This document shows, one piece after another, positions 1,793 through 55,663 of a stretch of 64,000 nt of DNA. Made by a program: the position numbers and the translations under genes. The notes beneath the pieces are model-generated. The model worked only from the letters and a program-made list of their open reading frames with translations. It was not told where the DNA came from and searched no databases. Position 1 is the stretch's first letter. Every line of letters begins with the position of its first letter. Source of the DNA: Candidatus Omnitrophota bacterium (lineage in GTDB: Bacteria; Omnitrophota; Gorgyraeia; 2-01-FULL-45-10); assembly GCA_020057115.1 (NCBI GenBank), contig JAGVGJ010000027.1:5058-69057 (forward strand), in the 5' to 3' direction.

Positions 1793-4700
1793 ATGTTCCG
1801 GGATAGGCATCCTAAAAAAGGCTTGGCAATGGAGAAGAAAAATTTTTTTAGACAGATCGTGAAGGCTTTTATAAAGCATAGAGCGAGGGCGACTGCCCTG
1901 GTGGTCGCGATCGTTTTTTTCTTTAATACGATATATCTTGATGTAGCCTTGGCAGCAAAGACAGATGCGGGGCTTGCCTCTGTTTCAACACCAAGCGCCT
2001 CAACTTCTAAAACATCCCAGCCATATAAAGATCTTAATATCAAAGATTTTATATTACCAGACTATCTTGGGACAATAAAAGACAGATATATATCTCCATC
2101 CGCTTCAGGCGATGTGATGATCCACATCCAGGATGCCCACTGTAACCAGCCATGCCAGAATAAGATCGCCGACATCATCAGCTATCTAAACAGCGAATAC
2201 GGCATCAAGGTTATAAACCTCGAAGGCGGAAGCGGCGAATATGATACGGCCGTATTTACCCGAATAGGCGATATGAATATCCGCCAGAAGGTAGCCGAGA
2301 CTTTCGTCGGCGAAGGCATGCTTAATGGCGGGGAATATTATGCAGTGCTTAATCCTGAGAAGGCCTCTCTCTGGGGCTTAGAGGATGCCTCGCTGTATGT
2401 TAAAAACCTGGATGTCTATCGGGATTCATTGAAGCATAAAGACGAAGTGGACAAATACCTCAAGAGCCTGAACCATGCATTAAGCAGCCTGAAGGCAAAA
2501 ATGTATTCGAAAGACCTGCTTGAACTTGACCTGAAAACTTCAGCCTACAAGTCCGATAATATCGATATGCGTGCGTATCTCGCGTATCTTTGCGATGCAG
2601 CCGTGAGGAAGGGGATGGGTATAGACAAGTTTGCCGATATAGCAAGCCTAAAGAAGGCGATAGACCTGGAGAAGTCCATAGATTTCAGGACGGCCGATGT
2701 CGAGCGAGAAGAGTTGTTCAAGGCCCTGTCGAAACGCCTTTCAAAGAATGCTATGGAAGAATTCGCGGCTAAAGCCATTGAGTTTAAGGCTGAGCGTATC
2801 TCGCCCGAGGTATTTTACGGCTATATGCTTAGCAGGGCCAGGTCTAGCGGGCTTAAGACTGATAAATATCCGGAACTTGCGAAGTATCTGGCTTATGTAT
2901 CAAGCTATGCCTCTATAGATAAGATAAAACTTACCAAGGAGATAGAGTCGCTTGAAAACGCCCTTAAGGAATCATATTTCGAGAATGAGGGCCAGCGTGA
3001 GCTTGCAAGTCTCTCCAAGAACCTTATTATCCTCGCCAATATCTTTAATTTGAAATTATCCAAAGATGATTATGACTATTATCTGGCGAATGAAGGCAAT
3101 TTCGAGACAGCGCTTTATGCGAAGTTTATCCAGAAGAATGCCTCGATATACAAGATAGCGGATAGGCTGGATAACGGGGTATCAGATCTAGATACCTATC
3201 GAAAAGAGATATCAAAATTCTATGAATATTCGCTTAAGAGAGATGATGCGTTCATGAGGAACATGAAATTTGGTGGGGGTCCAGGATCCAGGGGCCAGGG
3301 TCCAGATTCCGAAGTCCGGGGGGCTGTTATCGTGACCGGAGGGTTCCATTCGGAGAACCTGTGTGAGCTATTCAAGAAGAGCGGGATCTCTTACATATCC
3401 ATAATGCCAAGCTTTAAGATAGAAGAAGGCTATGCATGTCCATACTTCAAACTGCTGGCAGGACAGACCGATGGCATGCAGAACAGGCTTTATTCTATAA
3501 TCTCATCCGAAACGCGCACTTCAGGCATGCAGATAGCCAGCATGCTCTCAAGCGCCATAGCCGAGGCGGTATGGGGCAAAGCAAGAGTTAATGCTTTCCG
3601 CGCCGCGGTAGAGATAGATACCATGGTTACGGAAGGCAAGCGCGTCCTCGTCGTAAATGATAAAGGCGAAGTCCTCAAAGATGCGCGAGGCGAAGAGCTT
3701 GTATTTGGCGAGGGCGAGGATAAGCCGATAAGGATTGCGGAGCTTTTAGGTATTCCGTCTGCCGAAGCGCCGGATGTTTATGCAGTACCGGTTCAAGCCG
3801 TAGCGCCTCAGAAAGCAGCGCCTGCGATAACTCCCGCGCCAGCTGCCCCTGTAATCCGGCCGCTTGGAGGAGCTGTTACCGGATGGCTCAAGCGGCTTAC
3901 ACCCGGGATGCCGGAATGGGCGAGGGCGCTCATCGCGGCTCCTATAGTGGAGGAAGGGCTTTATAGAGGGTTTCCGCTGCTGGCGTCAATGGCCACTGTC
4001 TTGATAGCAGGCGCAGGATTTAACTGGCAACTCATCATGATAGGCTCTGTCTTTTTCCAGATACCGGCAGGGCTAAAGTTTATAGCTGATCATTATCCTA
4101 AAGGCAGAGCGCCGCCGTCCGTTATTATCAAGATGTTACTCGCCCCTTCCATAGTCGCAATAATAAATGCCGTTATCCTGCCGCTAGTATTCACGAACCC
4201 GTTCATGTTCACAGGCGCTGCCATATTAAGCCACTTAACGATAAATCTTGCGGTCATGATCGCCAATGCAATATTCCCGAGCGTCAATATCGGCTTTGCC
4301 GCTATAGGGGTTAGCTCCGGTAGGCCAGGCCCTGCTACCTCTAATATCGAAACACTTAAGCGCATGATGAGAGACCATGCATCTGCCCTTGAGAGATCTG
4401 CCTGGGACAGGAGCGGAAGATTGGGAAGATACATGCTGTTGATGCGGGAGCTGTTGGATAAAGGAGTGTTCCGGGTAGACTTTAGGCCCGAGAACGCGAT
4501 CCTTACCGATAATGCCATGAGCGCCCAGACATTTGACTATGACAAGCTGTATGAGGCGACAAACGTCTCATGGGATGAGACTAAATACTTTATATTCGCT
4601 TCCGTGATACAGCCGGCCAGATACGTATTCAGGGAGCTCGCCCGGGACGCATCCGGGAAAGAGAGGGCTGATTGGTTCTCGGAATACTTCAATGATTATC

Positions 4701-7700
4701 TCGATGCCATGTTCCAGGCAGGCGTGGCCAAGAATATAATAGGCGCTCGTTCGAGCCGCCAGAGGGCGAGGATCGTGGGCCTGGTGGATGCATACAATAA
4801 GAACAGAGAAGATGTCTCGATACTGCAAAAGCAGATAGCCACTCTAAAGGGAAAGCTGAAAGAGCTTGAAAGCGCGTCCAGGTCGCCTCAGACAGACGCG
4901 GTAAAGCGAAGCATAGAAGAGAATATCTCGCGCATAGGCTCCGAATACGAGAAGCGGAGCTCGGTAATGAGGTTCATAAGCGATGATATCGAAACATTCC
5001 TCAAGGAAAGCTTCCAGAAGGTCCCGATGGCAAGGCTGGACCAGGCCGAGCGCGAATGGGTCTATTCCCATCCGAGGCTTGCCATGCTTAAACGCCTGGG
5101 GATGAACGATGAATATGACGCGTTGGTAAGGCAGAGGCGCGTTATATTCTCGATCGTCGGGCAAAAAGGGCTGGCGGCATCTGAAGTTAGGACAAGGCAG
5201 GGTGTCGCGGATAAGAATATCACAAGGCCAGTTGATATCGACAGCGGCCTGCAGCAGCTGCTTCGCGCAGGTGTGGGTAAGTTTGCCCAGGGAGGTATTA
5301 ACGGAGTATATGAGAGAAGGCAATTCATAAGCGACCTCAATGCTATGATCGTATCAATGAGACAAGGAATGAGTTTTGCGCAATCATTCGAGAACGCGAT
5401 GAAGGAGAAAGATGCGAACTATAAGCTTGCTTCTTCGTATCGCGACATCCTGACCATGCTTAAGGGCCCGGAAGGCGCAGGTATCGAGACGGCCGCCACC
5501 GCATTTATGAAGAGATTGGCAAGTCGAGATGCGGCCGCGTGGAGCCAGGTCAACATGGTCATGCCGGAAGGCTATGTATTTAAAATGCCGCTTGGCAAGG
5601 ACCTGACATTCCTTGAGTTCAAAGATATAGGCAAGATGCCGGCAAGACAATTGGCAGGCAAGGTGTTCAAGGTAGACTCGGCGACGTCAGCGCTTAGCGC
5701 AGTAGATATGGAAGGCGAAACAGGAAGGCTCTTCCTGTTCGCATTATCCCGCAGGCATGCCGGAGAACTCATAAGGATCGTTAATAGCACGGTCGATCTT
5801 CCTACCGGGGAAAGGGCGGCGATATCAACTATTATATTCCAGGACCGGGAACAGATAGCGATAACCAGAGATGCGCTTGGCCTATTTACAAGAGAGCTTG
5901 GCGGAATCCAGCGTCAGGCGGAATTCTTGAGCATGGCAGCCAAAGACGTGCCGGGCCTCATCAATCCGACAACTTATTTTGAGATAAACGGAAAGGTGTT
6001 CGGTTCCGCCAGTAAAAAGTTCGATGCAGCCCAGGAGGTCCGCAAGGAGATAGATAAGGACATAGGCAGGGAGAATGTTATACGAGAAGGCATGGAAAAA
6101 ATAGATGTTAAGATCAAGCTATCGAGTGCTCCTTTCGGAGCATTTACACCTTACAGGATTTTTGATAGCTCCGGGAACGGCATATCCGTGAAGCGTTATC
6201 AGAATGGCGTGATAACAATAGGGGCGAGGAGAAACGTGGACGGAAAGGTCATGGCGGTCGGGGTTGATGAGACGATGTCCGCAGAGGACCTTGCCGACGA
6301 AAATAGGTTGTACGGACTTATAGAGTCGCTTAACAGAAGGGCGCCCGGCGTTGACTCGGATGCGATGATACGTAAAGTATTTACAGGGATGGGGATCCTG
6401 CTTCCTGGCGTAGGAGAGCCTGCGCTTATGCACGCCGGATTTGGCATAGCGATGTCAGGCTATGCCTTCGCCTCAGTAGAGGATGTAGAAGCTCACAGGG
6501 TTGCCCTGCAGGGCGAGATAGATAAAGGTATCACGCCTAGTAGCTTCGTAAAAGATAAGGTAATAATTGGCGGCAAGGAGATTCAGATAGTAATACATAA
6601 GACAGTATTAGACAGGCTTGATGCCGTAAAGAAGACTTTGCAGGGCTTTATAGAAGAATGTATAAAGATACGCGGGCCGGATTATGAAGCTACATTAAGG
6701 ACTAAGCTTGCAGGAAAACCCCTTATATTCGACGCCCTCACCAGATCTCCAAATCTCTACGGTAATTGCCAGAATGACGGCTATATCTACATAAATACCA
6801 ATTCGCCTATCCAGCTTGATGCGGTAGGTGTCTCTCATGAGTTCATGCATGAAGCGGATATATTCACTGATTCGGAGACCGATGAACAGGCGCTGGCCAA
6901 GAAAGATGTCGAGCTGATGCAGTATGTCGGCATAGATATCGCAAAATTCATGGAAAGACTTAAAGACGTAACGATGCCTACCGGGTATCTTGCAGCTGCG
7001 CTCGCAGCTATAGCATCGGCTAGACCGGTTGGAACGGCAGCGCCCATGCGCTTGGAAGGGGAAAACCTGATAGCTAGCTGCGACCGGTCGAATGCATGCG
7101 ATCTGCCTAACAGGCACAGGTATGTGGAAGATCTTGTTAAAAAATTACGTGAAGGTAAGAGGGTGGAGGTCGTTTCATTGAATATCCAGAACTTCAAGAT
7201 GGAGTTCAATGATAGAGGTAATAGCCTGGGGCCTGAGGTGGGCCATTTATTCGGAGATTTCGGTATACAGGCGGTTGCCGACGCATTGCCGAAGGCCATA
7301 AAGGCTACGTTGGAAGAGAAAGGCATCAAGGGCAATTTCGCGGTTTATAATGACGGGAAAAGTTACTTTGTCATATTTGAAGATATGCCAGCAGGATTCT
7401 CGGCTACAGATGCCCTGGAGTCGATGCTTAAGGATGACAATACTGCCTTCAAACGCAGCGTTGTCAAGAGCGTCATCTCCGAGACCAAAAAGGTGAAAAA
7501 ATGGAATGATGAGGCAACAGCCGATTTCACCAAAAATTTCACGACCCGCAACTTCAACATGTATGCCGGCATCTCTGCGCCGGCCTCCCTGAAGGACGAA
7601 GTTGGTTCCGGCGTAGATATCTTAAAGCTCGCGCAGCGCGCTGTTGCCCAGGCGGATCTTTCGGCAAAGGCCGCCCAGATGAGGACCGGGGAGATACTCA

Positions 7701-10700
7701 ACGCGATATTCCAGCAGTCTGACATGGAGGGCAAGACAGAGGCAGATATCCGAAAGCTGATAATGGATCGTGCTCAGAGCGCAAGGACCATGGCGATAAG
7801 CGCATGGCGCCCGTACGGAGCGCATGTGGAAGATGAAATAGTGGCGCTTGCCAAATACAGCCCTAAAGGCGAGTATGAAGTCATATACAGGCCGATCCCG
7901 GAAGTTTATAACGAAGAGGCTACCTATGAGAATCTTATTAACCAATATAGAGTTGCGCTAAAAGCAAGAGATCCGGCTAAGGTCCTGAAGGCCAAAGAGA
8001 AACTCTACGATAAGATGCTATTCTATGTACCTGAGCCGTCTGTGAGGTCGAGGTATGTGCGGCCGATCATCGTAGGGATGGAAAGGTTCAGGGATGCCAT
8101 AAACGGATTGATAAGGGCCCCGCCCCAGGCCGATTGGTCCGGAACATTTCGCGTGGGAGGGGATGAATTCGCGAAAATCATATTTAATGCCAAGACCGGG
8201 GTCTTGAGGATATTGCGGTTTGACGCGAATAACCTTGGAAAGATGAATGCCGCATGGGGTAGCAGGATCGGTGACAGGGTGATCGATGATATGCTGCGGC
8301 TCATCGATAAAGTGCAGGATCCAAACGACCTGATGGAGTATATCTATAGGTATTTTGACAATACAAATGAACGGGGCGAGAATTTCAGGGACAATCCTCT
8401 GGAGCTGACCGATACGGATCATGCTTATATATTGCGGGAACTCGTCCGGTTAGACATAAAAGATACTTCAAGGTACTTAATTTCAGATGAGAGCGGCAGG
8501 AATTATCTGGTCAAAGTCCCACCGCTATCATTGACGCATCAGGAAACGGGCAGGTCTTATAAGACCGGGCCTTCGGTTTCTGTGGGGCTTGTCGAGATAG
8601 ATACTCACCTCATACCCGGAAAAGATAGAATGCGTGACTTTTCTCCGATCCAGGGCAGGGCCGATTCAACGGCCGAGACAGTTAAGTCATCTATAAAGAG
8701 ATACCAATCCGAGCATGATGGCGCCATCGATTTTGCTGAAGTCAACAGATTGATGGTCAATTCTCAGCCATTCAATACAAAGGCATTGACAACATTCGAG
8801 AGATCGCCTATCGACCCGCTCCGTGAAGAGTTCGCAAGGTTCATCGTATCAAAACTTGAAAAGCCGGCCGCGCCAGTTACACCCGAAATGGCGCCTGTTG
8901 TCCCCGCCGCGCCGGCGCTTGACTTTAATGTGCGCATAGAGGCAGTTTCATTTAAAGGCGTAGAAGCAGAGTCTTGGAATAAATATAAAGAGCTTCTTGA
9001 TATGGCGCAAGAGATCGTATCATCTATCCCGAGAAGCGAGCTATTGACCATTATCCGCAACATATCCGGCAATAAGACGCTGCGTTTTGAAGATATTTCC
9101 AAAGACATAGCCATATCGTATTTTGCGGAAGGAGTCCATAAGTATGTCTTCAGGGTCGCGTTTTCGACGAAAGAGGGCAAACCGCTCGAGATATTGCTTG
9201 CCGCTAAAAAAGAGAAGAACTTAAAAGATATAAGCGGACACGAACTGCAGAACTTGAAGAAACTGCACGGCAGAGGCGTCCCTAAATTCGGTGGGTCGTT
9301 CAGGTCTAAGGACGGCAGGTTGTGGTATCTGGAAGAATTTATCGCCGGAGATACGGTCGGCGCGCTCCAGAAGCAAGGTGCCTTGAAGGACAATGTCAAA
9401 CGCGGCATAGTGGCTACCATGTTATTGATCGCTACCGGACTTAACGGGATGATACCGCGCGACATGCATGCCGAGAATATAATGGTTGAGAAAGGAACGG
9501 GCAGGGTTGTGATGGTGGATCTAGGAGACAGGAGGTTACATATAACAGGCAAAGACGCCACCGATGCCCACAGGATGCTATTTATAGGCATGCTGTTGTC
9601 CCAATACGGCGTTAACGACAAGGAGAGACCTGAGCTTGACCATGTCTTCTTTGACGCCATAGCCAATGACAGATCTCTTTCCGAGGAAGGAAGCCTTGAA
9701 ATGCTGCAAAAGGCGTATGCGGAACTTGAGAAGAGAGGCCAGGCAGGCGTTGTTGGCTATCTGGCCAAAGAAGGGCGCAATATGTTCGTAAGCGTCGGGG
9801 CGCAGAATAGGGATGCTGCGCGCATGGACGATTTTGTAGGCACATTTACAAGAAGCCTCGGATCATACCTTGCTAAGTCAGGCCAGCTCCGCGGCCCGCC
9901 TATTATGCCAATATCTACAGCACCGGTTGCTGCCGCTGTCCCTGGTATTGTGAGCCTTACCGATAATATTGCTGAAGACATGGCGTTGCGCAATGTGATC
10001 GCTCTGGCAAGTTTCAGCCATGCGTCGAACAGGCTTACCGAAATAATGGGCATGGTGCAGATAGTTATGACGCTCACATCTGACATGATAGAGATACTAA
10101 AGAAAGAGAATGCGTCGGACGCCATGTTGAACGAGATGCGAGATATCCGAAGAGGCATGGTCGATGACGGTATAAGCAAAATAATAGAGCTTCACAAAAA
10201 GGCCATAGAACAGATGAGGAGTGGAGGCAAGAAGTATGCTCCTGCAGAAGTGTCTTCATGGAAAGAGGAATACCTTAAAGCGTACCGATCTTTCGAAGCT
10301 TCCGCGAAAAGGTTCGACGGCGTAAAAGAGAAGATGGCGGCCGCCGTAACCGATAAAGAACTGCCAAAACTTCTGAAATGGTATGGTGATGTCGCGCCCA
10401 AGCTTGATGACGTGCTTTCTGACAGGGCCAGTCTTATGACCGGCGAACTTAAAGATGAGTTGATCGATTTGCGCGAGGTCCTTGATCGGGAGCTCTTTAT
10501 AAAATTACTCCAGGCCGTTGTCAATAACCCTGCTACGGAAAGGTATTTCGATATTCGCATGCCCGACGGACCTGTCATGGTCAAGGGCAACAGGATATCG
10601 CTATCAGCACTCTTTACAGACCTTGCTAACAATGCCTATAAGTATGCCGAGAAGGCGCAGAAAGGGAATGCCAAAGTAATCATTGAGCTTGCACTTGAAA

Positions 10701-11935
10701 ACGGCAAGCCAGTGGTCAAGGTGACCGATAACGGCGAGGGCATAACGCCGGAGAAGCTGGCCCAGATGCAGCAGCCGTTCTTCACTACCGGAGGCACGGG
10801 TATCGGCCTTACCGAGTCGCGCATAATAGCCAAGGACCATGGCGGCTCGATCGATGTGCAGTCAGAGCCTGGCAAAGGCGCTATGTTCATAGTCCGCCTG
10901 CCTCTCGCATCAGCACCCGTCTCTATACCGCCTGTCGTCGAGGTCGCTGGGCTGGTGGCGCCGGCACCAGGCGAGAGGGAAGTGGTGAAGGTTGAAAAAG
11001 TGACTACGCCTTTGACAAAGGTGGAAGAGGCTTCCAGGAGGCGTGCGAAAAAGGCTGGCCTTGAGATAGCGGTTTACCGCAAGAATGTAGTTCCGATGGC
11101 TGAGGAATTTGCCAGGTCCAAGGATATCGAAACCCTCAGGCGCGAGCGAGATATATTGCAGCAAAAATTCGAAAGAGGCGAGACATTGCCTATTTACCAG
11201 GATGAAGCGTATGAGCTTGCTATAGAGATGCTAGAGGGTGCGGCGCCGGCTATAACTCCGAGCCAGGTCATCAAGACCGCACTTGCGGATGCGGCTCAGG
11301 GAACCGCGAATATAATAGTCATGGCAGGGTCTGAGATGTATGTTGCCCAGCAGACCAGCATAAACCGCACTATGGCACAGCAGCTCGGCAAGACGCAGAA
11401 TATCACGGTAGTTCCTTACAGCTATAAATACGGGGAGAATATCGATTGGAAGGCCGGCATAACAAAGGTCTTGTCTATGGCAGTGCAGGACCTTCACGCC
11501 AGGATCAAGAAAGGCGATGCTACTGCGCGCGTGATAGTATTTGTGCCATTCGACGGCGTGAAAGATGTGAAGGCGATGGTGGCAGGCATAGACGCCGATA
11601 TGGTGCCCAGGGTGACGGTCGTCGGCGAAGCCAATATGCCGATGGACGGAGGCATAGATAACATAGTCCATATAGCGTCAGGCGTAAGCATGCTTGAATA
11701 TGAAAGATTCCGGAAAGGCGATTACGGTGATGCTGTCATGCCGCAGGAGTCCAAGATGCGCTTAAATGACCTCATGAAGCTTCTGGTCGTAGATCCAGCC
11801 GCTATCGATATAGGAAAACATCCGGATATAATAGACAGGATCCTGGACGGCCTTACCGCCATACCGCTCAGGCCGATCACCGGAGAAATATCCCAGCGCA
11901 TAGAGAGTATGAAGAAAGTCCTTCAATCACTTTAA
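1793..11935 (+). CDS. Giant multidomain protein (3380 aa), a signalling/enzyme mosaic. Order of elements: N-terminal signal/TM anchor; TraB/GumN-like motifs; CPBP (CAAX/Abi) intramembrane protease-like domain; kinase-like DxxxxN loops; an HExxH motif; degenerate and canonical GGDEF motifs; HisKA-like H-box plus HATPase_c.
   Basis: A single uninterrupted 10.1 kb ORF. All antisense ORFs inside it are short and low-complexity. The motifs I read in the translation are listed below.
- Hydrophobic anchor ALVVAIVFFFNTIYLDVALA.
- MIHIQDAH … AVIVTGGFHSENL, which resembles the two signature motifs of the TraB/GumN family.
- EEGLYRG, FIADH and HLTIN, matching the three CPBP motifs EExxxR, FxxxH and HxxxN.
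- FRVDFRPENAIL and IPRDMHAENIM…VVMVDLGD, which are protein-kinase-like.
- VSHEFMHE, an HExxH motif.
- LNIQNFKMEFNDRGNSLGPEVG…YNDGKSYFVIFED, a degenerate GGDEF-like stretch, and FRVGGDEFAKII.
- ASFSHASNRLTEI (H-box-like) followed by DLANNAYKYA, DNGEGI and GTGIGL, the N, G1 and G2 boxes of a GHKL/His-kinase ATPase.
Alternative start at M13 (nt 1829). Confidence 0.85.
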   Translation: MFRDRHPKKGLAMEKKNFFRQIVKAFIKHRARATALVVAIVFFFNTIYLDVALAAKTDAGLASVSTPSASTSKTSQPYKDLNIKDFILPDYLGTIKDRYISPSASGDVMIHIQDAHCNQPCQNKIADIISYLNSEYGIKVINLEGGSGEYDTAVFTRIGDMNIRQKVAETFVGEGMLNGGEYYAVLNPEKASLWGLEDASLYVKNLDVYRDSLKHKDEVDKYLKSLNHALSSLKAKMYSKDLLELDLKTSAYKSDNIDMRAYLAYLCDAAVRKGMGIDKFADIASLKKAIDLEKSIDFRTADVEREELFKALSKRLSKNAMEEFAAKAIEFKAERISPEVFYGYMLSRARSSGLKTDKYPELAKYLAYVSSYASIDKIKLTKEIESLENALKESYFENEGQRELASLSKNLIILANIFNLKLSKDDYDYYLANEGNFETALYAKFIQKNASIYKIADRLDNGVSDLDTYRKEISKFYEYSLKRDDAFMRNMKFGGGPGSRGQGPDSEVRGAVIVTGGFHSENLCELFKKSGISYISIMPSFKIEEGYACPYFKLLAGQTDGMQNRLYSIISSETRTSGMQIASMLSSAIAEAVWGKARVNAFRAAVEIDTMVTEGKRVLVVNDKGEVLKDARGEELVFGEGEDKPIRIAELLGIPSAEAPDVYAVPVQAVAPQKAAPAITPAPAAPVIRPLGGAVTGWLKRLTPGMPEWARALIAAPIVEEGLYRGFPLLASMATVLIAGAGFNWQLIMIGSVFFQIPAGLKFIADHYPKGRAPPSVIIKMLLAPSIVAIINAVILPLVFTNPFMFTGAAILSHLTINLAVMIANAIFPSVNIGFAAIGVSSGRPGPATSNIETLKRMMRDHASALERSAWDRSGRLGRYMLLMRELLDKGVFRVDFRPENAILTDNAMSAQTFDYDKLYEATNVSWDETKYFIFASVIQPARYVFRELARDASGKERADWFSEYFNDYLDAMFQAGVAKNIIGARSSRQRARIVGLVDAYNKNREDVSILQKQIATLKGKLKELESASRSPQTDAVKRSIEENISRIGSEYEKRSSVMRFISDDIETFLKESFQKVPMARLDQAEREWVYSHPRLAMLKRLGMNDEYDALVRQRRVIFSIVGQKGLAASEVRTRQGVADKNITRPVDIDSGLQQLLRAGVGKFAQGGINGVYERRQFISDLNAMIVSMRQGMSFAQSFENAMKEKDANYKLASSYRDILTMLKGPEGAGIETAATAFMKRLASRDAAAWSQVNMVMPEGYVFKMPLGKDLTFLEFKDIGKMPARQLAGKVFKVDSATSALSAVDMEGETGRLFLFALSRRHAGELIRIVNSTVDLPTGERAAISTIIFQDREQIAITRDALGLFTRELGGIQRQAEFLSMAAKDVPGLINPTTYFEINGKVFGSASKKFDAAQEVRKEIDKDIGRENVIREGMEKIDVKIKLSSAPFGAFTPYRIFDSSGNGISVKRYQNGVITIGARRNVDGKVMAVGVDETMSAEDLADENRLYGLIESLNRRAPGVDSDAMIRKVFTGMGILLPGVGEPALMHAGFGIAMSGYAFASVEDVEAHRVALQGEIDKGITPSSFVKDKVIIGGKEIQIVIHKTVLDRLDAVKKTLQGFIEECIKIRGPDYEATLRTKLAGKPLIFDALTRSPNLYGNCQNDGYIYINTNSPIQLDAVGVSHEFMHEADIFTDSETDEQALAKKDVELMQYVGIDIAKFMERLKDVTMPTGYLAAALAAIASARPVGTAAPMRLEGENLIASCDRSNACDLPNRHRYVEDLVKKLREGKRVEVVSLNIQNFKMEFNDRGNSLGPEVGHLFGDFGIQAVADALPKAIKATLEEKGIKGNFAVYNDGKSYFVIFEDMPAGFSATDALESMLKDDNTAFKRSVVKSVISETKKVKKWNDEATADFTKNFTTRNFNMYAGISAPASLKDEVGSGVDILKLAQRAVAQADLSAKAAQMRTGEILNAIFQQSDMEGKTEADIRKLIMDRAQSARTMAISAWRPYGAHVEDEIVALAKYSPKGEYEVIYRPIPEVYNEEATYENLINQYRVALKARDPAKVLKAKEKLYDKMLFYVPEPSVRSRYVRPIIVGMERFRDAINGLIRAPPQADWSGTFRVGGDEFAKIIFNAKTGVLRILRFDANNLGKMNAAWGSRIGDRVIDDMLRLIDKVQDPNDLMEYIYRYFDNTNERGENFRDNPLELTDTDHAYILRELVRLDIKDTSRYLISDESGRNYLVKVPPLSLTHQETGRSYKTGPSVSVGLVEIDTHLIPGKDRMRDFSPIQGRADSTAETVKSSIKRYQSEHDGAIDFAEVNRLMVNSQPFNTKALTTFERSPIDPLREEFARFIVSKLEKPAAPVTPEMAPVVPAAPALDFNVRIEAVSFKGVEAESWNKYKELLDMAQEIVSSIPRSELLTIIRNISGNKTLRFEDISKDIAISYFAEGVHKYVFRVAFSTKEGKPLEILLAAKKEKNLKDISGHELQNLKKLHGRGVPKFGGSFRSKDGRLWYLEEFIAGDTVGALQKQGALKDNVKRGIVATMLLIATGLNGMIPRDMHAENIMVEKGTGRVVMVDLGDRRLHITGKDATDAHRMLFIGMLLSQYGVNDKERPELDHVFFDAIANDRSLSEEGSLEMLQKAYAELEKRGQAGVVGYLAKEGRNMFVSVGAQNRDAARMDDFVGTFTRSLGSYLAKSGQLRGPPIMPISTAPVAAAVPGIVSLTDNIAEDMALRNVIALASFSHASNRLTEIMGMVQIVMTLTSDMIEILKKENASDAMLNEMRDIRRGMVDDGISKIIELHKKAIEQMRSGGKKYAPAEVSSWKEEYLKAYRSFEASAKRFDGVKEKMAAAVTDKELPKLLKWYGDVAPKLDDVLSDRASLMTGELKDELIDLREVLDRELFIKLLQAVVNNPATERYFDIRMPDGPVMVKGNRISLSALFTDLANNAYKYAEKAQKGNAKVIIELALENGKPVVKVTDNGEGITPEKLAQMQQPFFTTGGTGIGLTESRIIAKDHGGSIDVQSEPGKGAMFIVRLPLASAPVSIPPVVEVAGLVAPAPGEREVVKVEKVTTPLTKVEEASRRRAKKAGLEIAVYRKNVVPMAEEFARSKDIETLRRERDILQQKFERGETLPIYQDEAYELAIEMLEGAAPAITPSQVIKTALADAAQGTANIIVMAGSEMYVAQQTSINRTMAQQLGKTQNITVVPYSYKYGENIDWKAGITKVLSMAVQDLHARIKKGDATARVIVFVPFDGVKDVKAMVAGIDADMVPRVTVVGEANMPMDGGIDNIVHIASGVSMLEYERFRKGDYGDAVMPQESKMRLNDLMKLLVVDPAAIDIGKHPDIIDRILDGLTAIPLRPITGEISQRIESMKKVLQSL

Positions 11936-13211: not shown

Positions 13212-13748
13212 ATGAATGATTTTAGGGCCACCGGATTCAGGGCCGCGGCAGAATATGTGACAGAGGATCCCAGGGGGTCCACATTATTCTATGACGGGTA
13301 TGGTAACGGGGCTTTTGTATTCTGGGTGCGCAAATTTGATAAGGACAGGAAGACCATAGTCTTAAGAGGCGATAAGCTCCTGACATCTTCGGCCATATTC
13401 GATTGGAGGGATCTTAAGATACATGTCCGCTCGACCGAAGAGATATATGATATCTTCAGGCGGTTTGGCACGACATATGTAGTCGTCGAAAAATACGATA
13501 AGGCAGGGATACCGGTCCGGGCCATGCTAAGAGAAATGCTGAAGACGGGCAAGTTCCGCATGGTAAAAGAGCTGCCGATCGAAACATCCGATCCGGAGCT
13601 TAAAGGCCAGAGCATCTTGATATATGAAAGGCTTGAAGGTCCTGTGGCTCCGTATGGAGAGCTGGTATTGCCGTTACCGATAGTAGGCAAGGAGATAAAG
13701 CTGCCGATAGAGGACCTGGTGCAGGATGGAACGCGAAAGCGGAGATAG
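13212..13748 (+). CDS. C-terminal soluble (periplasmic-type) domain of the same ArnT/PMT-like glycosyltransferase. It lies in the same frame as 12033..13055, so the annotated Met is probably not a true start.
   Basis: Frame 0 is continuous from 13056 to 13748. Length and composition fit the C-terminal domain of roughly 560-aa GT-C transferases. Confidence 0.55.
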   Translation: MNDFRATGFRAAAEYVTEDPRGSTLFYDGYGNGAFVFWVRKFDKDRKTIVLRGDKLLTSSAIFDWRDLKIHVRSTEEIYDIFRRFGTTYVVVEKYDKAGIPVRAMLREMLKTGKFRMVKELPIETSDPELKGQSILIYERLEGPVAPYGELVLPLPIVGKEIKLPIEDLVQDGTRKRR

Positions 13749-18035: not shown

Positions 18036-18752
18036 TTGGGAAAGTCCAAAGCCACGCCATCATTTAAATACATCATGGAAAAGTTAGCCCTGAACAAGTC
18101 TATCATGGCATTGGTCGGGAAGATAGCTTTATGCCACGGCTTATTTTCTGACAGCTCTTCGGAAGATAAGATCAAAGGCGATTATTACATGCTTAAGGGG
18201 ATCCTGGCAGAATGGTTCGGCAGAAATTTATTGCAAGGAATAATACGAAAAAATGCGAAAGATCCGGTCGGGCTTATGTCGGATTTCAAGATCACAAGAG
18301 AGCTGTACGGTGCGGACGATGCATTGATCTCGGAGTTATTATTGGCGGAGGGGATCTTCCTGAAAAGCCAGAAAGACTTATCGCGGTTTTTTGTTAAAAC
18401 AAAATATTTCGATCATGCGGAGCGTTCCTTGGGTGGAGATGGAGACCACAAGCTCGATCCTTCGGATTTTTCGCCCATGGCCGATTCCGGATCGAGCGAT
18501 ATATTCGAAAAATATTACATGTTGGGATCAACGTTATGGTCTAAGAGCGCATCTGCAGCGATTAGAGAGCTGATGGCTGGACTTGATGCAGGCGCAGGCA
18601 GGCAATTCTTCGTCGCTAAAATAGCCCTGTCTCGCGGAGTGATGTCGGCTCTATCCGGAGCGCAAAATATATTCGAAGATTATAATCGTATCAAGCATCT
18701 CATCCGCCCGGAAAGCATTCTTTCCAGGATGAGAAGAATATTCACAAGATAG
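18036..18752 (+). CDS. Continuation of the tandem-repeat protein. It holds 2-3 more copies of the same ~85-aa repeat and sits in a different frame from 16718..18013.
   Basis: The repeat consensus (KPEEIF…ALVGKIALCHGLF…LISELLLAEGIF…) already appears in this frame upstream of the annotated TTG start, from 17940. This places a frameshift near the ggcggcggc run around 17941-17950. Confidence 0.5.
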   Translation: MGKSKATPSFKYIMEKLALNKSIMALVGKIALCHGLFSDSSSEDKIKGDYYMLKGILAEWFGRNLLQGIIRKNAKDPVGLMSDFKITRELYGADDALISELLLAEGIFLKSQKDLSRFFVKTKYFDHAERSLGGDGDHKLDPSDFSPMADSGSSDIFEKYYMLGSTLWSKSASAAIRELMAGLDAGAGRQFFVAKIALSRGVMSALSGAQNIFEDYNRIKHLIRPESILSRMRRIFTR

Positions 18753-19700: not shown

Positions 19701-21191
19701 TTATTTTGCCTTTCGCAATAATTCGGCGACTTTTAAATCTATGCTTTCCAGTATGTCCTCGGATATGGCGCGCCACTCTTTAAGAAGCGGCGCAGTTATC
19801 TCTATCCTTCGAGGCTCCGGGTTGTCGACATAATTTTCGTAAGTCTTCTCTATCCATGAGGCATCTTTGCCATAGTGCCTTATATATTCCGCGACCGTTT
19901 CTCGCGGAGTCGTGGTGATCATGCCGTGGTCAAGGAAAAGTTGCGTAGCGGGCAGCGTGCAATACAAAAGCGATATTATGCGTTGAACATAAAGCTGGTC
20001 TCCCATAAAAGCATTTCTTACGGTGCTTGGGAGCCTGGAAGAGAAAGCCATTATATTCTCGAATAAGGCGCTTGCGGTAGGTTCTCTCAAGAGATCCATC
20101 ATGTCATCGCCGCAGACGATCTCGCCATGCCTCTTCAGGTAATAGTATTCTACTGGCAGGCAGTAGGGGTTATGAAATGTATTCAGGTACGATAGTCCGG
20201 AAGACCTGATAAAATTTGGACGGTCTGAAATGAAACATATCCTATGCTTTGTGATCGCGCCAAAGAGGGGATGAGGCGGAAACCCGGCGCTGTCCGATAT
20301 GGCCTTTAAACATGCCGTATCCGGCGCGCGATCATCAAGTATAAAATATAGAAAATATCCAAAATCCGTGCAGGGCGCCGAAGCTAAAAGCACGGATCTT
20401 ACGGTCCCGTTCTGCTTATCGCAAAAATCCGCTATGGAAGGTCGAAGCTGTTCAAGGATGGCTGCTTTGTTCTTTTGAGGGTAGCGCGCATCCGTTAATC
20501 TCATTGATAAGCCGGCATGGATGGCGCAGGCACGATCCGTATTCACGCGCTCCTCTATCTGCAAGACGGCGCCTAGGTGCATATTTGTGAATTTCTCCAT
20601 CATGGCGGCGTCGAATCGCATATTTGCGCCGTTCGCGATCTGCACGTACAGGCGGCAGGCATTGCGAATATCTACGGGACGCTTATCCTCGCCGCCTAGA
20701 AGCATTTTGCAAAAAGCATAATTCGCGGTCTCATGGACGCCCGGCGTCAATTTTTTTGAGAGCTTTATGAAGTTGTTGCAAAAATGCCTGACGATGCTGG
20801 GTGTCCTTATCTCATTTGCAGTGTAGTACATATCTGTAAAGCTGTTGAAGAAACAGAATATCCAGTTATTGCGCTCGCTATCCTGGCGAGCGGGCTTGAG
20901 CGCAAGGCGCATCTTCGCGGGTATTACGGGTATCGAGTGTTGATATTTTGGGTTGACGCTCATTTCGAGAGAGTTCTTTAATTCCGCGGCCTTCCATATA
21001 ACGAAGTACATTGCAACAATACTCATTCTGCGAAAACCGTCTAGGAATGCCATGAGATCGGCCGTATCTTCAGCGGAAGCATTGTCTTTTATGACGACCC
21101 CGATATCTATATCGCTCGATCCGCACACCGTATCTTCTTTGTATTTCTTGTCCGTATATACACAAATGACATTTTTATTGAAAGAAAGCAT
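19701..21191 (-). CDS. Hypothetical protein (496 aa). A weak minimal nucleotidyltransferase-like N-terminal motif (GSSDIDIGV) is possible.
   Basis: A long clean ORF transcribed divergently from the HprK-like gene. No strong motif. Confidence 0.45.
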   Translation of the reverse strand: MLSFNKNVICVYTDKKYKEDTVCGSSDIDIGVVIKDNASAEDTADLMAFLDGFRRMSIVAMYFVIWKAAELKNSLEMSVNPKYQHSIPVIPAKMRLALKPARQDSERNNWIFCFFNSFTDMYYTANEIRTPSIVRHFCNNFIKLSKKLTPGVHETANYAFCKMLLGGEDKRPVDIRNACRLYVQIANGANMRFDAAMMEKFTNMHLGAVLQIEERVNTDRACAIHAGLSMRLTDARYPQKNKAAILEQLRPSIADFCDKQNGTVRSVLLASAPCTDFGYFLYFILDDRAPDTACLKAISDSAGFPPHPLFGAITKHRICFISDRPNFIRSSGLSYLNTFHNPYCLPVEYYYLKRHGEIVCGDDMMDLLREPTASALFENIMAFSSRLPSTVRNAFMGDQLYVQRIISLLYCTLPATQLFLDHGMITTTPRETVAEYIRHYGKDASWIEKTYENYVDNPEPRRIEITAPLLKEWRAISEDILESIDLKVAELLRKAK

Positions 21192-21227: not shown

Positions 21228-22169
21228 TTGAAGTGGATAGAGATCGATTTTTCATATTTCAAGCGGGATAGCCAGGGATCCGATCTGCATCTTCATGTTT
21301 TTAAAGAGACCAGGCGCATAGAGGAGATCCCGGGGATGGTGGCGGTATTCTCCACGCCGCGGAATGTTTGCTATTACAAGGACGGGGTTACTTACATAGA
21401 CTATTTCGGGAGGGGGCTGGCTATATACGACAGAAAGTCCGGTCGTGTTGATATATATTCCGAAGATCCCGTGATAATACATTCCGCCTCTTACGAGTCC
21501 ATTCTATCGCTTGTCGGCCAGTATCTGGATGGCAAGGCCTGGCATCGCATACATGGCGTGGGTTTTGATGTAAATGGAAAAGCTGCGATAGTCATGCTGG
21601 ACAGCGGTTCCGGCAAGACCGAGCTTGCCATGAGGTTTTTGCGCTCAAAGGCTCCGCAAAAACTCATATCCGAAGATACTCCCCTTGTTACTAGAGAGGG
21701 TAAAGTTTTGCCATTCCCGCTTCGGATAGGCGTAATAAATGCCGAAGCTATTGCGGACATACCGGAAAGCGCGAAGGTCTATTTTCCCAGAACGGAGTTC
21801 GGCCCTAAATATCTGGCAGATGTCACATATTTTAAGGACAAAATAGCCACCAAAAGTTCTTCCGCGTGGATCCTTGTTATGGGAAAGCGCTCCACGCTGG
21901 ACGAGCCTAAAATATATGCCGTACCAAAGATAGCGGTACTCGGCAATGTCTTTAAAAATCATATAATGGGTTTGGGCGTATATCATGGCCTGGAGTTCAT
22001 ACTTAAGGCTACTCCTTTCGATTTATTCAAAAAGACAGGCCTGGTATTTTCGAGGATCATCAACAGCATAATATTGATAGCGCGCTCCAGGACTTTCTCT
22101 CTGATACTTTCAAAGGATACGGAGAAGAATTGCGCGCTCTTAGAGAAATTCTTTCAGGAGCAGCAATAG
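21228..22169 (+). CDS. HPr kinase/phosphorylase C-terminal-domain-like P-loop protein (an 'HprK-related kinase')
   Basis: HRIHGVGFDVNGKAAIVMLDSGSGKTELAMRFL…ISEDTPLV aligns with the HprK_C core (hG-v-v-G-GvLi-G-SG-GKSE-AL-L…DD). The annotated start is a TTG. Confidence 0.55.
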   Translation: MKWIEIDFSYFKRDSQGSDLHLHVFKETRRIEEIPGMVAVFSTPRNVCYYKDGVTYIDYFGRGLAIYDRKSGRVDIYSEDPVIIHSASYESILSLVGQYLDGKAWHRIHGVGFDVNGKAAIVMLDSGSGKTELAMRFLRSKAPQKLISEDTPLVTREGKVLPFPLRIGVINAEAIADIPESAKVYFPRTEFGPKYLADVTYFKDKIATKSSSAWILVMGKRSTLDEPKIYAVPKIAVLGNVFKNHIMGLGVYHGLEFILKATPFDLFKKTGLVFSRIINSIILIARSRTFSLILSKDTEKNCALLEKFFQEQQ

Positions 22170-54701: not shown

Positions 54702-54724
54702 AACCCATTCAAGAAGGAAAATTG

Positions 54725-55663
54725 ATGAAAAGAGAGAGAGTAGACCTTTCGAAGATAAAGACCATTCCTCTTAACGCGAGGAAGTGTAAAGTATGCGTAA
54801 GCGACTTTGCCAAGGTCACCAAGAAAGGCGGCTCGTTCAAAGAGTTCTACGAGTCGCTTCCCAACATACTTGCAAGCCAGAACCTGCAGATAGTCGTAGA
54901 CGCCGTAGTGAAGGCGCATAAAGACGGTAAGAGCGTTGTCTTCATGATGGGCGCGCACGTGATCAAGTGCGGGCTGTCGCCGCTGGTGATAGACCTGATG
55001 AAGAGAGGCGTGCTCAAGGCGGTCGCTTTGAACGGCGCCGGCGTGATCCACGACACGGAGATAGCCATGATAGGCAGGACGAGCGAGGACGTGGGCGAGG
55101 CGATACTCGACGGATCGTTCGGCATGGCGAAGGAGACGGCGTCTTTCATAAATGACGCCATAAGCGACGGATTCAAGAATGGCATCGGCATAGGCGAGGC
55201 GGTGGGCAGCCGCATACTTCGCGACAAGCTGCCCCATAAAGACTTAAGCATACTTGCCGTCGGCCATGAGCTGAACGTGCCCGTCACAGCGCATGTCGCC
55301 ATCGGCACCGACATAATCCACCAGCATCCGTCGGCAAACGGCGCCGCGATCGGCGAGGGCTCGCTCCTCGATTTCAGGAATTTCATATATTCTCTCTCGA
55401 ATCTCGAGGACGGGGTCGTCATAAACTTCGGCTCCGCGGTAATATTACCGGAGGTATTTTTAAAAGCGGTAACCGTAGCGCGCAATCTCGGTTTTAAGCT
55501 CGAGCGTTTTACGACGGCGAATTTCGACATGATAAGCCAGTACAGGCCTTACCAGAACATACTCTCAAGGCCCACGTCGAAGGGCGGGAGAGGTTATAAC
55601 GTAATAGGGCATCATGAGATAATGATGCCTTTACTTTACCGGTCGATAATAGAGAAACTATAA
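54725..55663 (+). CDS. Deoxyhypusine-synthase-like (DHS-like NAD-binding fold) protein, putative
   Basis: …GVLKAVALNGAGVIHD… and …VPVTAHVAIGTDIIHQH… resemble the conserved TTAGGvEED and P-x-DGSIGD blocks of the DHS family. Moderate certainty only. Confidence 0.4.
   Translation: MKRERVDLSKIKTIPLNARKCKVCVSDFAKVTKKGGSFKEFYESLPNILASQNLQIVVDAVVKAHKDGKSVVFMMGAHVIKCGLSPLVIDLMKRGVLKAVALNGAGVIHDTEIAMIGRTSEDVGEAILDGSFGMAKETASFINDAISDGFKNGIGIGEAVGSRILRDKLPHKDLSILAVGHELNVPVTAHVAIGTDIIHQHPSANGAAIGEGSLLDFRNFIYSLSNLEDGVVINFGSAVILPEVFLKAVTVARNLGFKLERFTTANFDMISQYRPYQNILSRPTSKGGRGYNVIGHHEIMMPLLYRSIIEKL

Follow-up and report, generated by a model that had tools for sequence, protein, structure and literature searches.

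A histidine-kinase-like cassette was found near the C-terminus of a protein of 3,380 amino acids (aa) encoded in a 64,000-nucleotide stretch of contig JAGVGJ010000027.1 from a Candidatus Omnitrophota bacterium (the whole of this stretch is called the window below). The C-terminal half of the cassette is a complete GHKL/HATPase_c domain of the NtrB/ZraS type. The N-terminal half is a helical domain of about 155 residues, in which only the last helix corresponds to helix alpha-2 of the dimerization and histidine phosphotransfer (DHp) domain of canonical kinases. In the predicted structure, the place of the canonical His-bearing partner of this helix is taken by a short helix with an invariant histidine at its end, a structured loop, and three further long helices. 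Our preferred reading, to which we give about even chances, is that the cassette is a lineage-specific, divergent histidine-kinase-like autokinase, phosphorylated at His2743 and served by a partner encoded elsewhere. The giant open reading frame (ORF) and the elements of the cassette are as follows.

1793..11935, plus strand: giant ORF, a single ORF of 3,380 codons (3,380 aa)
9938..10915, plus strand: histidine-kinase-like cassette (aa 2716-3041), consisting of a helical H-domain and a catalytic domain; the unit is conserved in relatives
9980..10441, plus strand: helical H-domain (aa 2730-2883), delimited by the AlphaFold2 secondary structure and unrecognised by Pfam
10007..10045, plus strand: H-box-like motif ASFSHASNRLTEI (aa 2739-2751), with the His2743 codon CAT at 10019-10021
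10358..10441, plus strand: last helix of the H-domain (aa 2856-2883) with the D2877-R2878 pair, equivalent to DHp helix alpha-2
10589..10909, plus strand: HATPase_c catalytic/ATP-binding domain (aa 2933-3039), Pfam E=1.9e-20
10619..10648, plus strand: N box DLANNAYKYA, containing the Mg-binding Asn; conserved in the family
10727..10744, plus strand: G1 box DNGEGI, with D, G, G invariant across the family
10775..10789, plus strand: F box PFFTT, directly followed by the G2 box; F invariant across the family
10793..10810, plus strand: G2 box GTGIGL, within GGTGIGL(TE); GxG invariant across the family

The match to the Pfam HATPase_c model scores 73.8 bits (cut-off 26.4) and spans positions 2-110 of the 111 in the model; it is real and far beyond chance. 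The first-pass annotation of this DNA, made from the sequence alone, had placed N, G1 and G2 boxes in 10619-10810 and proposed a Pfam scan as a check; all three boxes are there, the F box is present as well, and the scan yielded a strong match over the full model. The F and G2 boxes (10775..10810) form a short ATP lid of the NtrB/ZraS type, and the closest relatives in NCBIfam and PDB are AtoS and ZraS. NCBIfam equivalogs of kinases (AtoS, VirA, PrsK, PhoR, ZraS and others) match the C-terminal catalytic part only, scoring far below their cut-offs. All 40 of the 40 PDB sequence matches are histidine kinases and are limited to aa 2867-3062. The HATPase_c_2 model, diagnostic of the RsbW/SpoIIAB type, scores 20.0 bits with a cut-off of 27.4, beneath the stronger HATPase_c match.

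A word-indexed search with aa 2700-3380 produced one real relative, protein P0001 (42% identity over 339 aa, E=2e-77), with the match beginning shortly ahead of the His and reaching the end of the catalytic domain; the other matches were ordinary kinases aligned over 10-30% of the query. A profile of the His and helical region (alignment A1) was then compared with 1.84 billion cluster representatives. It retrieved 14 proteins, six of them at E<=1e-10; except for one short fragment and a repeat protein matched spuriously, all have several domains and a length of 704-6,403 aa. The back-translated pattern G[TGK]GIG[LMT]TE[SAV][RK] occurs at 10 loci in GTDB genomes, seven from Candidatus Omnitrophota and three from metagenome-assembled genomes (MAGs) labelled 'uncultured Planctomycetia', and at six family loci in JGI metagenomes. 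The window DNA belongs to Omnitrophota, as proteins named Candidatus Omnitrophota share 80-83% identity with its TopA; a protein on a public contig of 77,936 bp is 100% identical to this TopA. According to Pfam, the chains of 10 family proteins carry one to four copies of HATPase_c and, variously, Pkinase and HATPase_c_2.

The family motif around His2743 is [LF][AG]S[FL]xH[GA][TS]NxxT[EDN]. In alignment A2, which comprises 12 sequences with 24-43% identity to the window protein, the invariant positions of the helical half are S25, H28 (= His2743), W108, D162, R163 and G169 in module numbering. When 20 distinct module instances, among them paralogous second copies and seven newly obtained from genomes, were aligned to a hidden Markov model (HMM) of the helical domain, the only invariant residues in this half were His2743 and Arg2878, and the Asp of the D2877-R2878 pair was nearly invariant. 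The histidine is retained in three further metagenome instances, reading TLASLTHASNKLTN, NLASLMHGSNRRTD and SFASFGHATNKTTD, and thus in 23 of 23 overall. By inspection rather than by statistics, the motif looks like a decayed H-box of the NtrB type (LAAGVAHEINNPL): there is Leu-Ala upstream, Asn at +3 and, in two members, Pro at +5.

The AlphaFold2 model of the cassette, built on alignment A2, has a mean predicted local distance difference test score (pLDDT) of 91 and a predicted template modelling score (pTM) of 0.88. The order of its elements is a short helix (module residues 15-27), a structured loop (28-36) and four long helices (37-56, 61-94, 102-136, 141-168), followed by the alpha/beta catalytic domain. 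In this monomer model, the four long helices lie within one chain. The long helices between His2743 and alpha-2 amount to about 95 extra residues, modelled at pLDDT 90-98.

Comparison by hhalign with 119 canonical kinases gives a probability of 100% and E=1.5e-42, the aligned part starting only at module residue 143 and comprising alpha-2 and the catalytic domain. Similarly, in a profile search of PDB the alignments to solved kinases start at profile positions 139-164. Thus the DHp alpha-2 helix is contiguous with the catalytic domain, as in canonical transmitters; it aligns to canonical kinases only when taken together with that domain. Module residues 8-98, containing the His and the next two helices, are weakly similar by hhalign to the canonical DHp domain (probability 67-77%, P=2e-5). 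Two candidate derivations of the helical domain were rejected: a tandem duplication of the DHp hairpin (segment 8-98 against 96-175, hhalign probability 0.3%), and a full canonical DHp formed by helices 102-168 alone (hhalign probability 0.4%).

No DHp-type model recognises the helical half. HisKA, HisKA_2, HisKA_3, HWE_HK, Hpt and H-kinase_dim do not match the window protein at Pfam E<=1, so that the HisKA scan suggested in the first-pass annotation came out negative. HisKA, HisKA_2, HisKA_3, HWE_HK, H-kinase_dim, Hpt and Response_reg are not found in the 10 family proteins at Pfam E<=1e-3. The 10 helical regions taken in isolation match, at Pfam E<=10, no DHp-type model, no BCDHK_Adom3, and nothing else consistently.

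Pfam Response_reg was not observed in the scanned ORFs of at least 170 aa between positions 187 and 57,447. A receiver HMM was constructed from 74 domains (CheY, PhoB, Spo0F and 71 receivers of hybrid kinases) and applied at maximum sensitivity to all stop-to-stop frames of at least 40 aa of the window, to the giant protein, to its relatives and to the related loci. It found nothing at E<=1 in any frame of the 64-kb window or in the related loci. In the giant protein there is no receiver (E=0.19 for the whole protein), and Pfam Response_reg is absent from it too. The earlier observations that the protein has no receiver and that no response regulator is encoded within 10 kb are therefore borne out, and the latter extends to the full 64 kb. 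Receivers are also absent from the family proteins and from 13 + 6 family loci (about 190 kb) in a six-frame search. Two weak receiver matches in metagenome loci L021 and L022 were set aside, since these loci encode generic hybrid kinases without the helical H-domain and are not family members. The lack of a regulator nearby is thus not special to this gene but holds throughout the small family.

The remainder of the giant protein downstream of the cassette forms an orphan region.

10916..11932, plus strand: C-terminal orphan region (aa 3042-3380), in which an Ala/Pro-rich linker is followed by a helical stretch and a probable alpha/beta domain

The first-pass annotation saw no recognisable motif in these approximately 330 aa, and indeed the C-terminal ~336 aa have no homologue at E<=1e-3 and no Pfam match. 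Its suggestion of an internal phosphoacceptor found no support. There is no receiver-HMM signal in the region, and a reading of the sequence shows no evident acidic-pocket motifs (DD...D...T/S...K). The AlphaFold2 model of the last 226 aa starts with beta-alpha-beta-alpha-beta at a pLDDT of 48, and Foldseek returns no match for it under E=0.06, the candidates being generic Rossmann-like or periplasmic-binding-protein-like folds and no receivers. Nine relatives (P0123-P0127, P0129-P0131, P0133) have in common a C-terminal domain of about 190 aa without a Pfam match, with the motif ..ALGTSWIKGY.. AKVxVLAG .. AGVD .. PxAxP..EL..Y..Q.FA. It is present whatever the protein length (704-6,403 aa) or the position of the cassette, which may be thousands of residues away. 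Proteins of this Omnitrophota class may use it in common for anchoring, export or assembly. The C-terminus of the window protein looks colinear with it in a MAFFT alignment (AGID/AGVD, C-terminal helix), but neither hmmsearch (E=0.25 for the whole protein) nor hhalign (P=0.44) finds a significant similarity. The AlphaFold2 model with a pLDDT of 48, too poor for a judgement of the fold, was built on this alignment.

Taken together, these data suggest how the cassette might work. The helical half would descend from DHp, since alpha-2 and the H-box-like motif are retained, and seems to have been rebuilt into a larger domain which, in the model, folds within one chain. His2743 is most simply the phosphoacceptor, as it is an invariant His in an H-box-like context. 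From ATP binding on, we infer the following steps. The catalytic domain would bind Mg-ATP and phosphorylate His2743, and the role of the dimeric four-helix bundle may fall to the enlarged helical bundle within one chain. The phosphoryl group would then be passed in trans to a receiver encoded elsewhere, perhaps within another very long Omnitrophota protein; the receiver is placed elsewhere because none was found in the giant protein, in the 64-kb window or beside any relative. The cassette would be one of many interchangeable enzyme modules of Omnitrophota megaproteins.

Several observations weigh against this autokinase reading. AlphaFold2 places His28 at the helix end or loop, and not in the middle of a helix in a two-helix DHp hairpin. 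In the hhalign alignment the canonical His falls opposite Thr34, conserved in the family, rather than opposite His28, which makes the equivalence of His28 and the canonical His ambiguous. His2743 is 205 residues ahead of the N-box Asn, whereas in HisKA kinases this spacing is about 110 residues. HisKA kinases have a conserved Glu or Asp immediately after the His, acting as the general base; here nearly all members have Gly, Ala, Ser, Pro or Asn at this position (H+1), and one has Glu. No HisKA-type model matches the H-box-like motif or the helical half in any member, and no partner receiver for the cassette was found in the window or in the family loci searched. Thus, of the H-box originally noticed, the His is where it was reported and is invariant in 23 instances, but the motif is unrecognised by any model, has a spacing of 205 and lacks the H+1 acid. 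The wider claim of a transmitter module stands as regards a complete HATPase_c domain with N, G1, F and G2 boxes and a conserved upstream His; it does not as regards the DHp part, given the absence of a DHp-type match, the spacing, the H+1 residue and the AlphaFold2 fold.

The main rival is a PDK/RsbW-style kinase without phospho-His, that is, a GHKL protein kinase or ATPase similar to PDK/BCKDK or RsbW/SpoIIAB, whose target would be a domain of the same megaprotein or a separate protein, and whose invariant His would be structural or substrate-binding. There is room for it because the H+1 acid is lost, the AlphaFold2 model has an intramolecular multi-helix bundle in a single chain, and receivers are absent everywhere searched (window, family proteins, related loci). 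The neighbour domains Pkinase, HATPase_c_2 and low-molecular-weight (LMW) phosphatase of family proteins also suggest protein phosphorylation chemistry. In the Foldseek comparison of the model with PDB, ranks 34-50 are occupied by BCKDK structures (E about 1e-9, TM-score 0.40-0.44, 15% identity), with more aligned columns than the histidine kinases. However, these superpositions are poor, with a root-mean-square deviation (rmsd) of 18-19 Å, and they rank under 33 matches, all of the histidine-kinase type (HK853, KinB, ZraS, CckA, WalK, LvrB, DivL), with E about 1e-10 and target-normalised TM-scores up to 0.65. Besides, BCDHK_Adom3 is unmatched even at E<=10, HATPase_c_2 reaches 20 bits instead of the required 27.4, and an absolutely invariant His in an H-box-like context is what one would predict for a phospho-His kinase. 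On balance, we consider a kinase without phospho-His somewhat unlikely. A bolder version of the autokinase reading takes the model at face value: the cassette would represent a new architectural class of histidine kinase, monomeric and made of a single chain, with an enlarged intramolecular five-helix domain in place of the dimeric DHp and with the His on an N-terminal helix end or loop and not on alpha-1. If so, kinase modules could act as beads on megaprotein chains, and their targets would be receivers in other Omnitrophota giants or, since relatives have signal-like N-termini and effector-like cargo, proteins of a host or prey cell. We regard this version as unlikely.

At the other extreme, the cassette could be an ordinary orphan histidine kinase with a normal dimeric four-helix bundle, in which the extra helices are an insertion into the loop of the DHp hairpin, the AlphaFold2 monomer is misleading, and a standard regulator gene is located elsewhere. 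Orphan kinases are common, the order of elements is canonical (an H-box-like motif upstream, alpha-2 and the catalytic domain downstream), and the IMG annotation already is signal transduction histidine kinase. On the other hand, the approximately 95 extra residues between the His and alpha-2 are modelled as confident long helices, more than 20 instances have no HisKA match, and the H+1 acid is lost. Moreover, the host proteins have from 700 to more than 7,000 aa, sometimes with 2-4 copies per chain, which is hard to square with simple parallel homodimers. An ordinary orphan kinase thus seems quite unlikely; if it were one, the result would be a routine annotation. Finally, the phosphoacceptor could be internal, making the protein a cryptic hybrid kinase whose C-terminal ~330 aa are a novel receiver-like domain. 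The beta-alpha-beta-alpha-beta start of the C-terminal model fits, with low confidence, a flavodoxin- or Rossmann-like fold, and most relatives end in the shared alpha/beta-looking domain of ~190 aa. But neither the receiver HMM (E=0.19) nor a reading of the sequence for acidic-pocket motifs reveals a receiver, the best fold matches of the model with pLDDT 48 have E>=0.06 and are non-receivers, and the homology of the window C-terminus to the family domain is not significant (E=0.25; P=0.44). There are also proteins that end in the family domain and have their cassette thousands of residues upstream of it. A cryptic hybrid is therefore very improbable.

The cassette occurs in proteins of diverse size. 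In two metagenome loci, L015 and L018 (contigs of 141 kb and 218 kb), it is in the middle of an ORF that fills the whole 21-kb locus and is cut off at both ends; hence these proteins exceed 7,000 aa. In L018 there is a second catalytic domain about 900 aa downstream of the cassette. Four HATPase_c domains in a single chain were seen in P0123 (2,744 aa) and in the ORF of L012/L017 (3,183 aa). In P0123, at least two of them are preceded by such His-containing helical domains, e.g. VRSFDHGPATD at about aa 1880. The P0001 locus (L001:2379-11466) consists of three consecutive ORFs of 1,182, 1,188 and 642 aa, the third cut by the contig end, and all three begin with a segment resembling a signal peptide. 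Among the domains carried are the kinase cassette, an LMW phosphatase, an M48 peptidase and a GNAT-like region, and a short repeated motif [IRT][SRK]GAMHE, found four times in P0001, stands between the domains; it looks like a processing site or a standard linker.

Public collections contain the giant protein of the window both as P0121 (3,368 aa, with Met13 as its start) and as P0134 (3,380 aa); in IMG it is named 'signal transduction histidine kinase/GGDEF domain-containing protein'. One transmembrane (TM) segment is N-terminal (aa 33-55) and several others cluster at aa ~712-839; the remaining ~2,500 aa are without TM segments and contain several enzyme-like domains. Residues 1-2700 (1793-9900) are mostly unrecognised domains strung on Ala/Pro-rich linkers. 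Two regions upstream of the cassette resemble known domains weakly.

7100..7303, plus strand: weak GGDEF-like region (aa 1770-1837), Pfam GGDEF E=8.4e-5, 22.8 bits with a cut-off of 23.8
9212..9526, plus strand: weak protein-kinase-like region (aa 2474-2578), Pfam Pkinase E=0.04, below the cut-off

The second of these, directly upstream of the kinase cassette, contains the motifs RDMHAENI and VDLGD. By its origin, TM anchor, and combination of HATPase_c with weak GGDEF and Pkinase regions, the protein is of the Omnitrophota multi-enzyme type. Other motifs seen in the giant ORF are the CPBP/CAAX-protease-like EExxxR motif IVEEGLYRGFP (nucleotides 3944-3976) within 3-5 TM segments, the HExxH motif HEFMHE (6836-6853), the literal letters GGDEF (8156-8170), and the linker motif AAPAITP, which occurs twice, at aa 675 and 3150. 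The N-termini of P0123-P0126, P0130, P0131 and of the window protein (1793-2000) share what looks like a signal or signal anchor: a basic stretch, one hydrophobic segment ending in ..N.[LI][AS][YF][AG], and then a Pro/Ser-rich stretch. Such signal-like N-termini pose the question whether the ATP-dependent domains come to lie outside the cell or in a host.

Large ORFs of the window between 187 and 57,447 encode, by Pfam, alanine racemase, glycosyltransferases, an ABC-2 exporter, enzymes of ilv/leu and aro biosynthesis, DprA, TopA, an XerC-like protein, and proteins of lipid A and lipopolysaccharide (LPS) core synthesis. Among or beside the glycosyltransferase and LPS clusters there are five sizeable ORFs without a Pfam match at E<=1e-3 (E<=1e-4 for the last of them): 19701-21191 on the minus strand, and 21228-22169, 18036-18752, 13212-13748 and 54722-55663 on the plus strand. 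Over the window (1-64000), nearly all large ORFs are on the plus strand and every 2-kb bin has a positive GC skew, in keeping with the leading strand of one replichore. The G+C content is about 0.46-0.50 over the first 28 kb and about 0.52-0.55 after that.

That HATPase_c occurs in Omnitrophota giants is already known from Pfam counts, and this protein has been automatically annotated as a histidine kinase. The cassette with its Pfam-invisible five-helix His-domain appears to be undescribed in the literature searched. So do its rarity, its restriction to Omnitrophota and a few MAGs binned as Planctomycetia, and its consistent lack of receivers. The family, of approximately 23 modules, can be recognised by the diagnostic motif [LF][AG]S[FL]xH[GA][TS]NxxT ... 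DRxxLxxG ... GTGIGLTE in a compact unit of about 335 aa, for which the model is confident. The defining feature of two-component kinases is a dimeric DHp hairpin with a phospho-His, whereas the cassette keeps the catalytic domain and one invariant His, with the rest rebuilt into a larger helical domain predicted to lie in a single chain. If confirmed, it would be a further exception to the dimeric rule, and would show how kinase signalling could be packaged into the multi-enzyme giants of Omnitrophota, an uncultured and probably host-dependent phylum.

Among known systems, the HisKA kinases of the NtrB/AtoS/ZraS type (ZraS 9jfj, HK853 2c2a/3dge, KinB 3d36) have the same N, G1, F (PFFTT) and G2 boxes, the same contiguity of alpha-2 with the catalytic domain, and an upstream conserved His in a motif that resembles LAAGVAHEINNPL. 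Unlike them, the cassette has no HisKA match, has its His 205 and not ~110 residues before the N-box Asn, and lacks the H+1 acid. It contains three extra long helices in a predicted intramolecular bundle, is set in a megaprotein, and has neither a sensor-TM-HAMP/PAS input directly upstream nor a nearby partner regulator.

In EL346, a DHp-like intramolecular helical bundle packs against the catalytic domain; EL346 has a LOV sensor and a known regulator pathway. This monomeric HWE/HisKA_2 kinase and its relatives are a precedent for a monomeric histidine kinase (PMC10359499). However, their H-box family, HWE/HisKA_2, is unmatched by the cassette in Pfam. The mitochondrial protein kinases PDK/BCKDK (4h7q, 3tz5) also have a helical bundle followed by HATPase_c in one chain, without a receiver partner, and are found by Foldseek at ~1e-9. 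They differ from the cassette in that the rmsd is about 19 Å and BCDHK_Adom3 is not matched; besides, their substrate residue is Ser, and an invariant His of the H-box-like kind is lacking in them.

In the very long Omnitrophota proteins that combine many enzymes (West-Roberts et al. 2023, bioRxiv 10.1101/2023.11.21.568195; Nielsen & Lui 2026, bioRxiv 10.64898/2026.06.07.730766), HATPase_c and GGDEF rank among the most frequent domains. The surveys give HATPase_c this rank without explaining its role in megaproteins; both count Pfam domains only, and the helical His-domain and the absence of HisKA are not described in them (10.1101/2023.11.21.568195; 10.64898/2026.06.07.730766). In Omnitrophota proteins of at least 10 kAA (thousand amino acids), PF02518 is present in 136/779 and the receiver PF00072 in 105/779, in different co-occurrence modules (10.64898/2026.06.07.730766). 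As both domains occur in Omnitrophota giants, receivers in other megaproteins are plausible partners of the cassette. With 3,380 aa, the window protein is under the survey thresholds of 10-30 kAA, but it resembles the surveyed giants in coming from the same phylum, in being membrane-anchored, and in carrying many unrelated enzyme domains in one chain.

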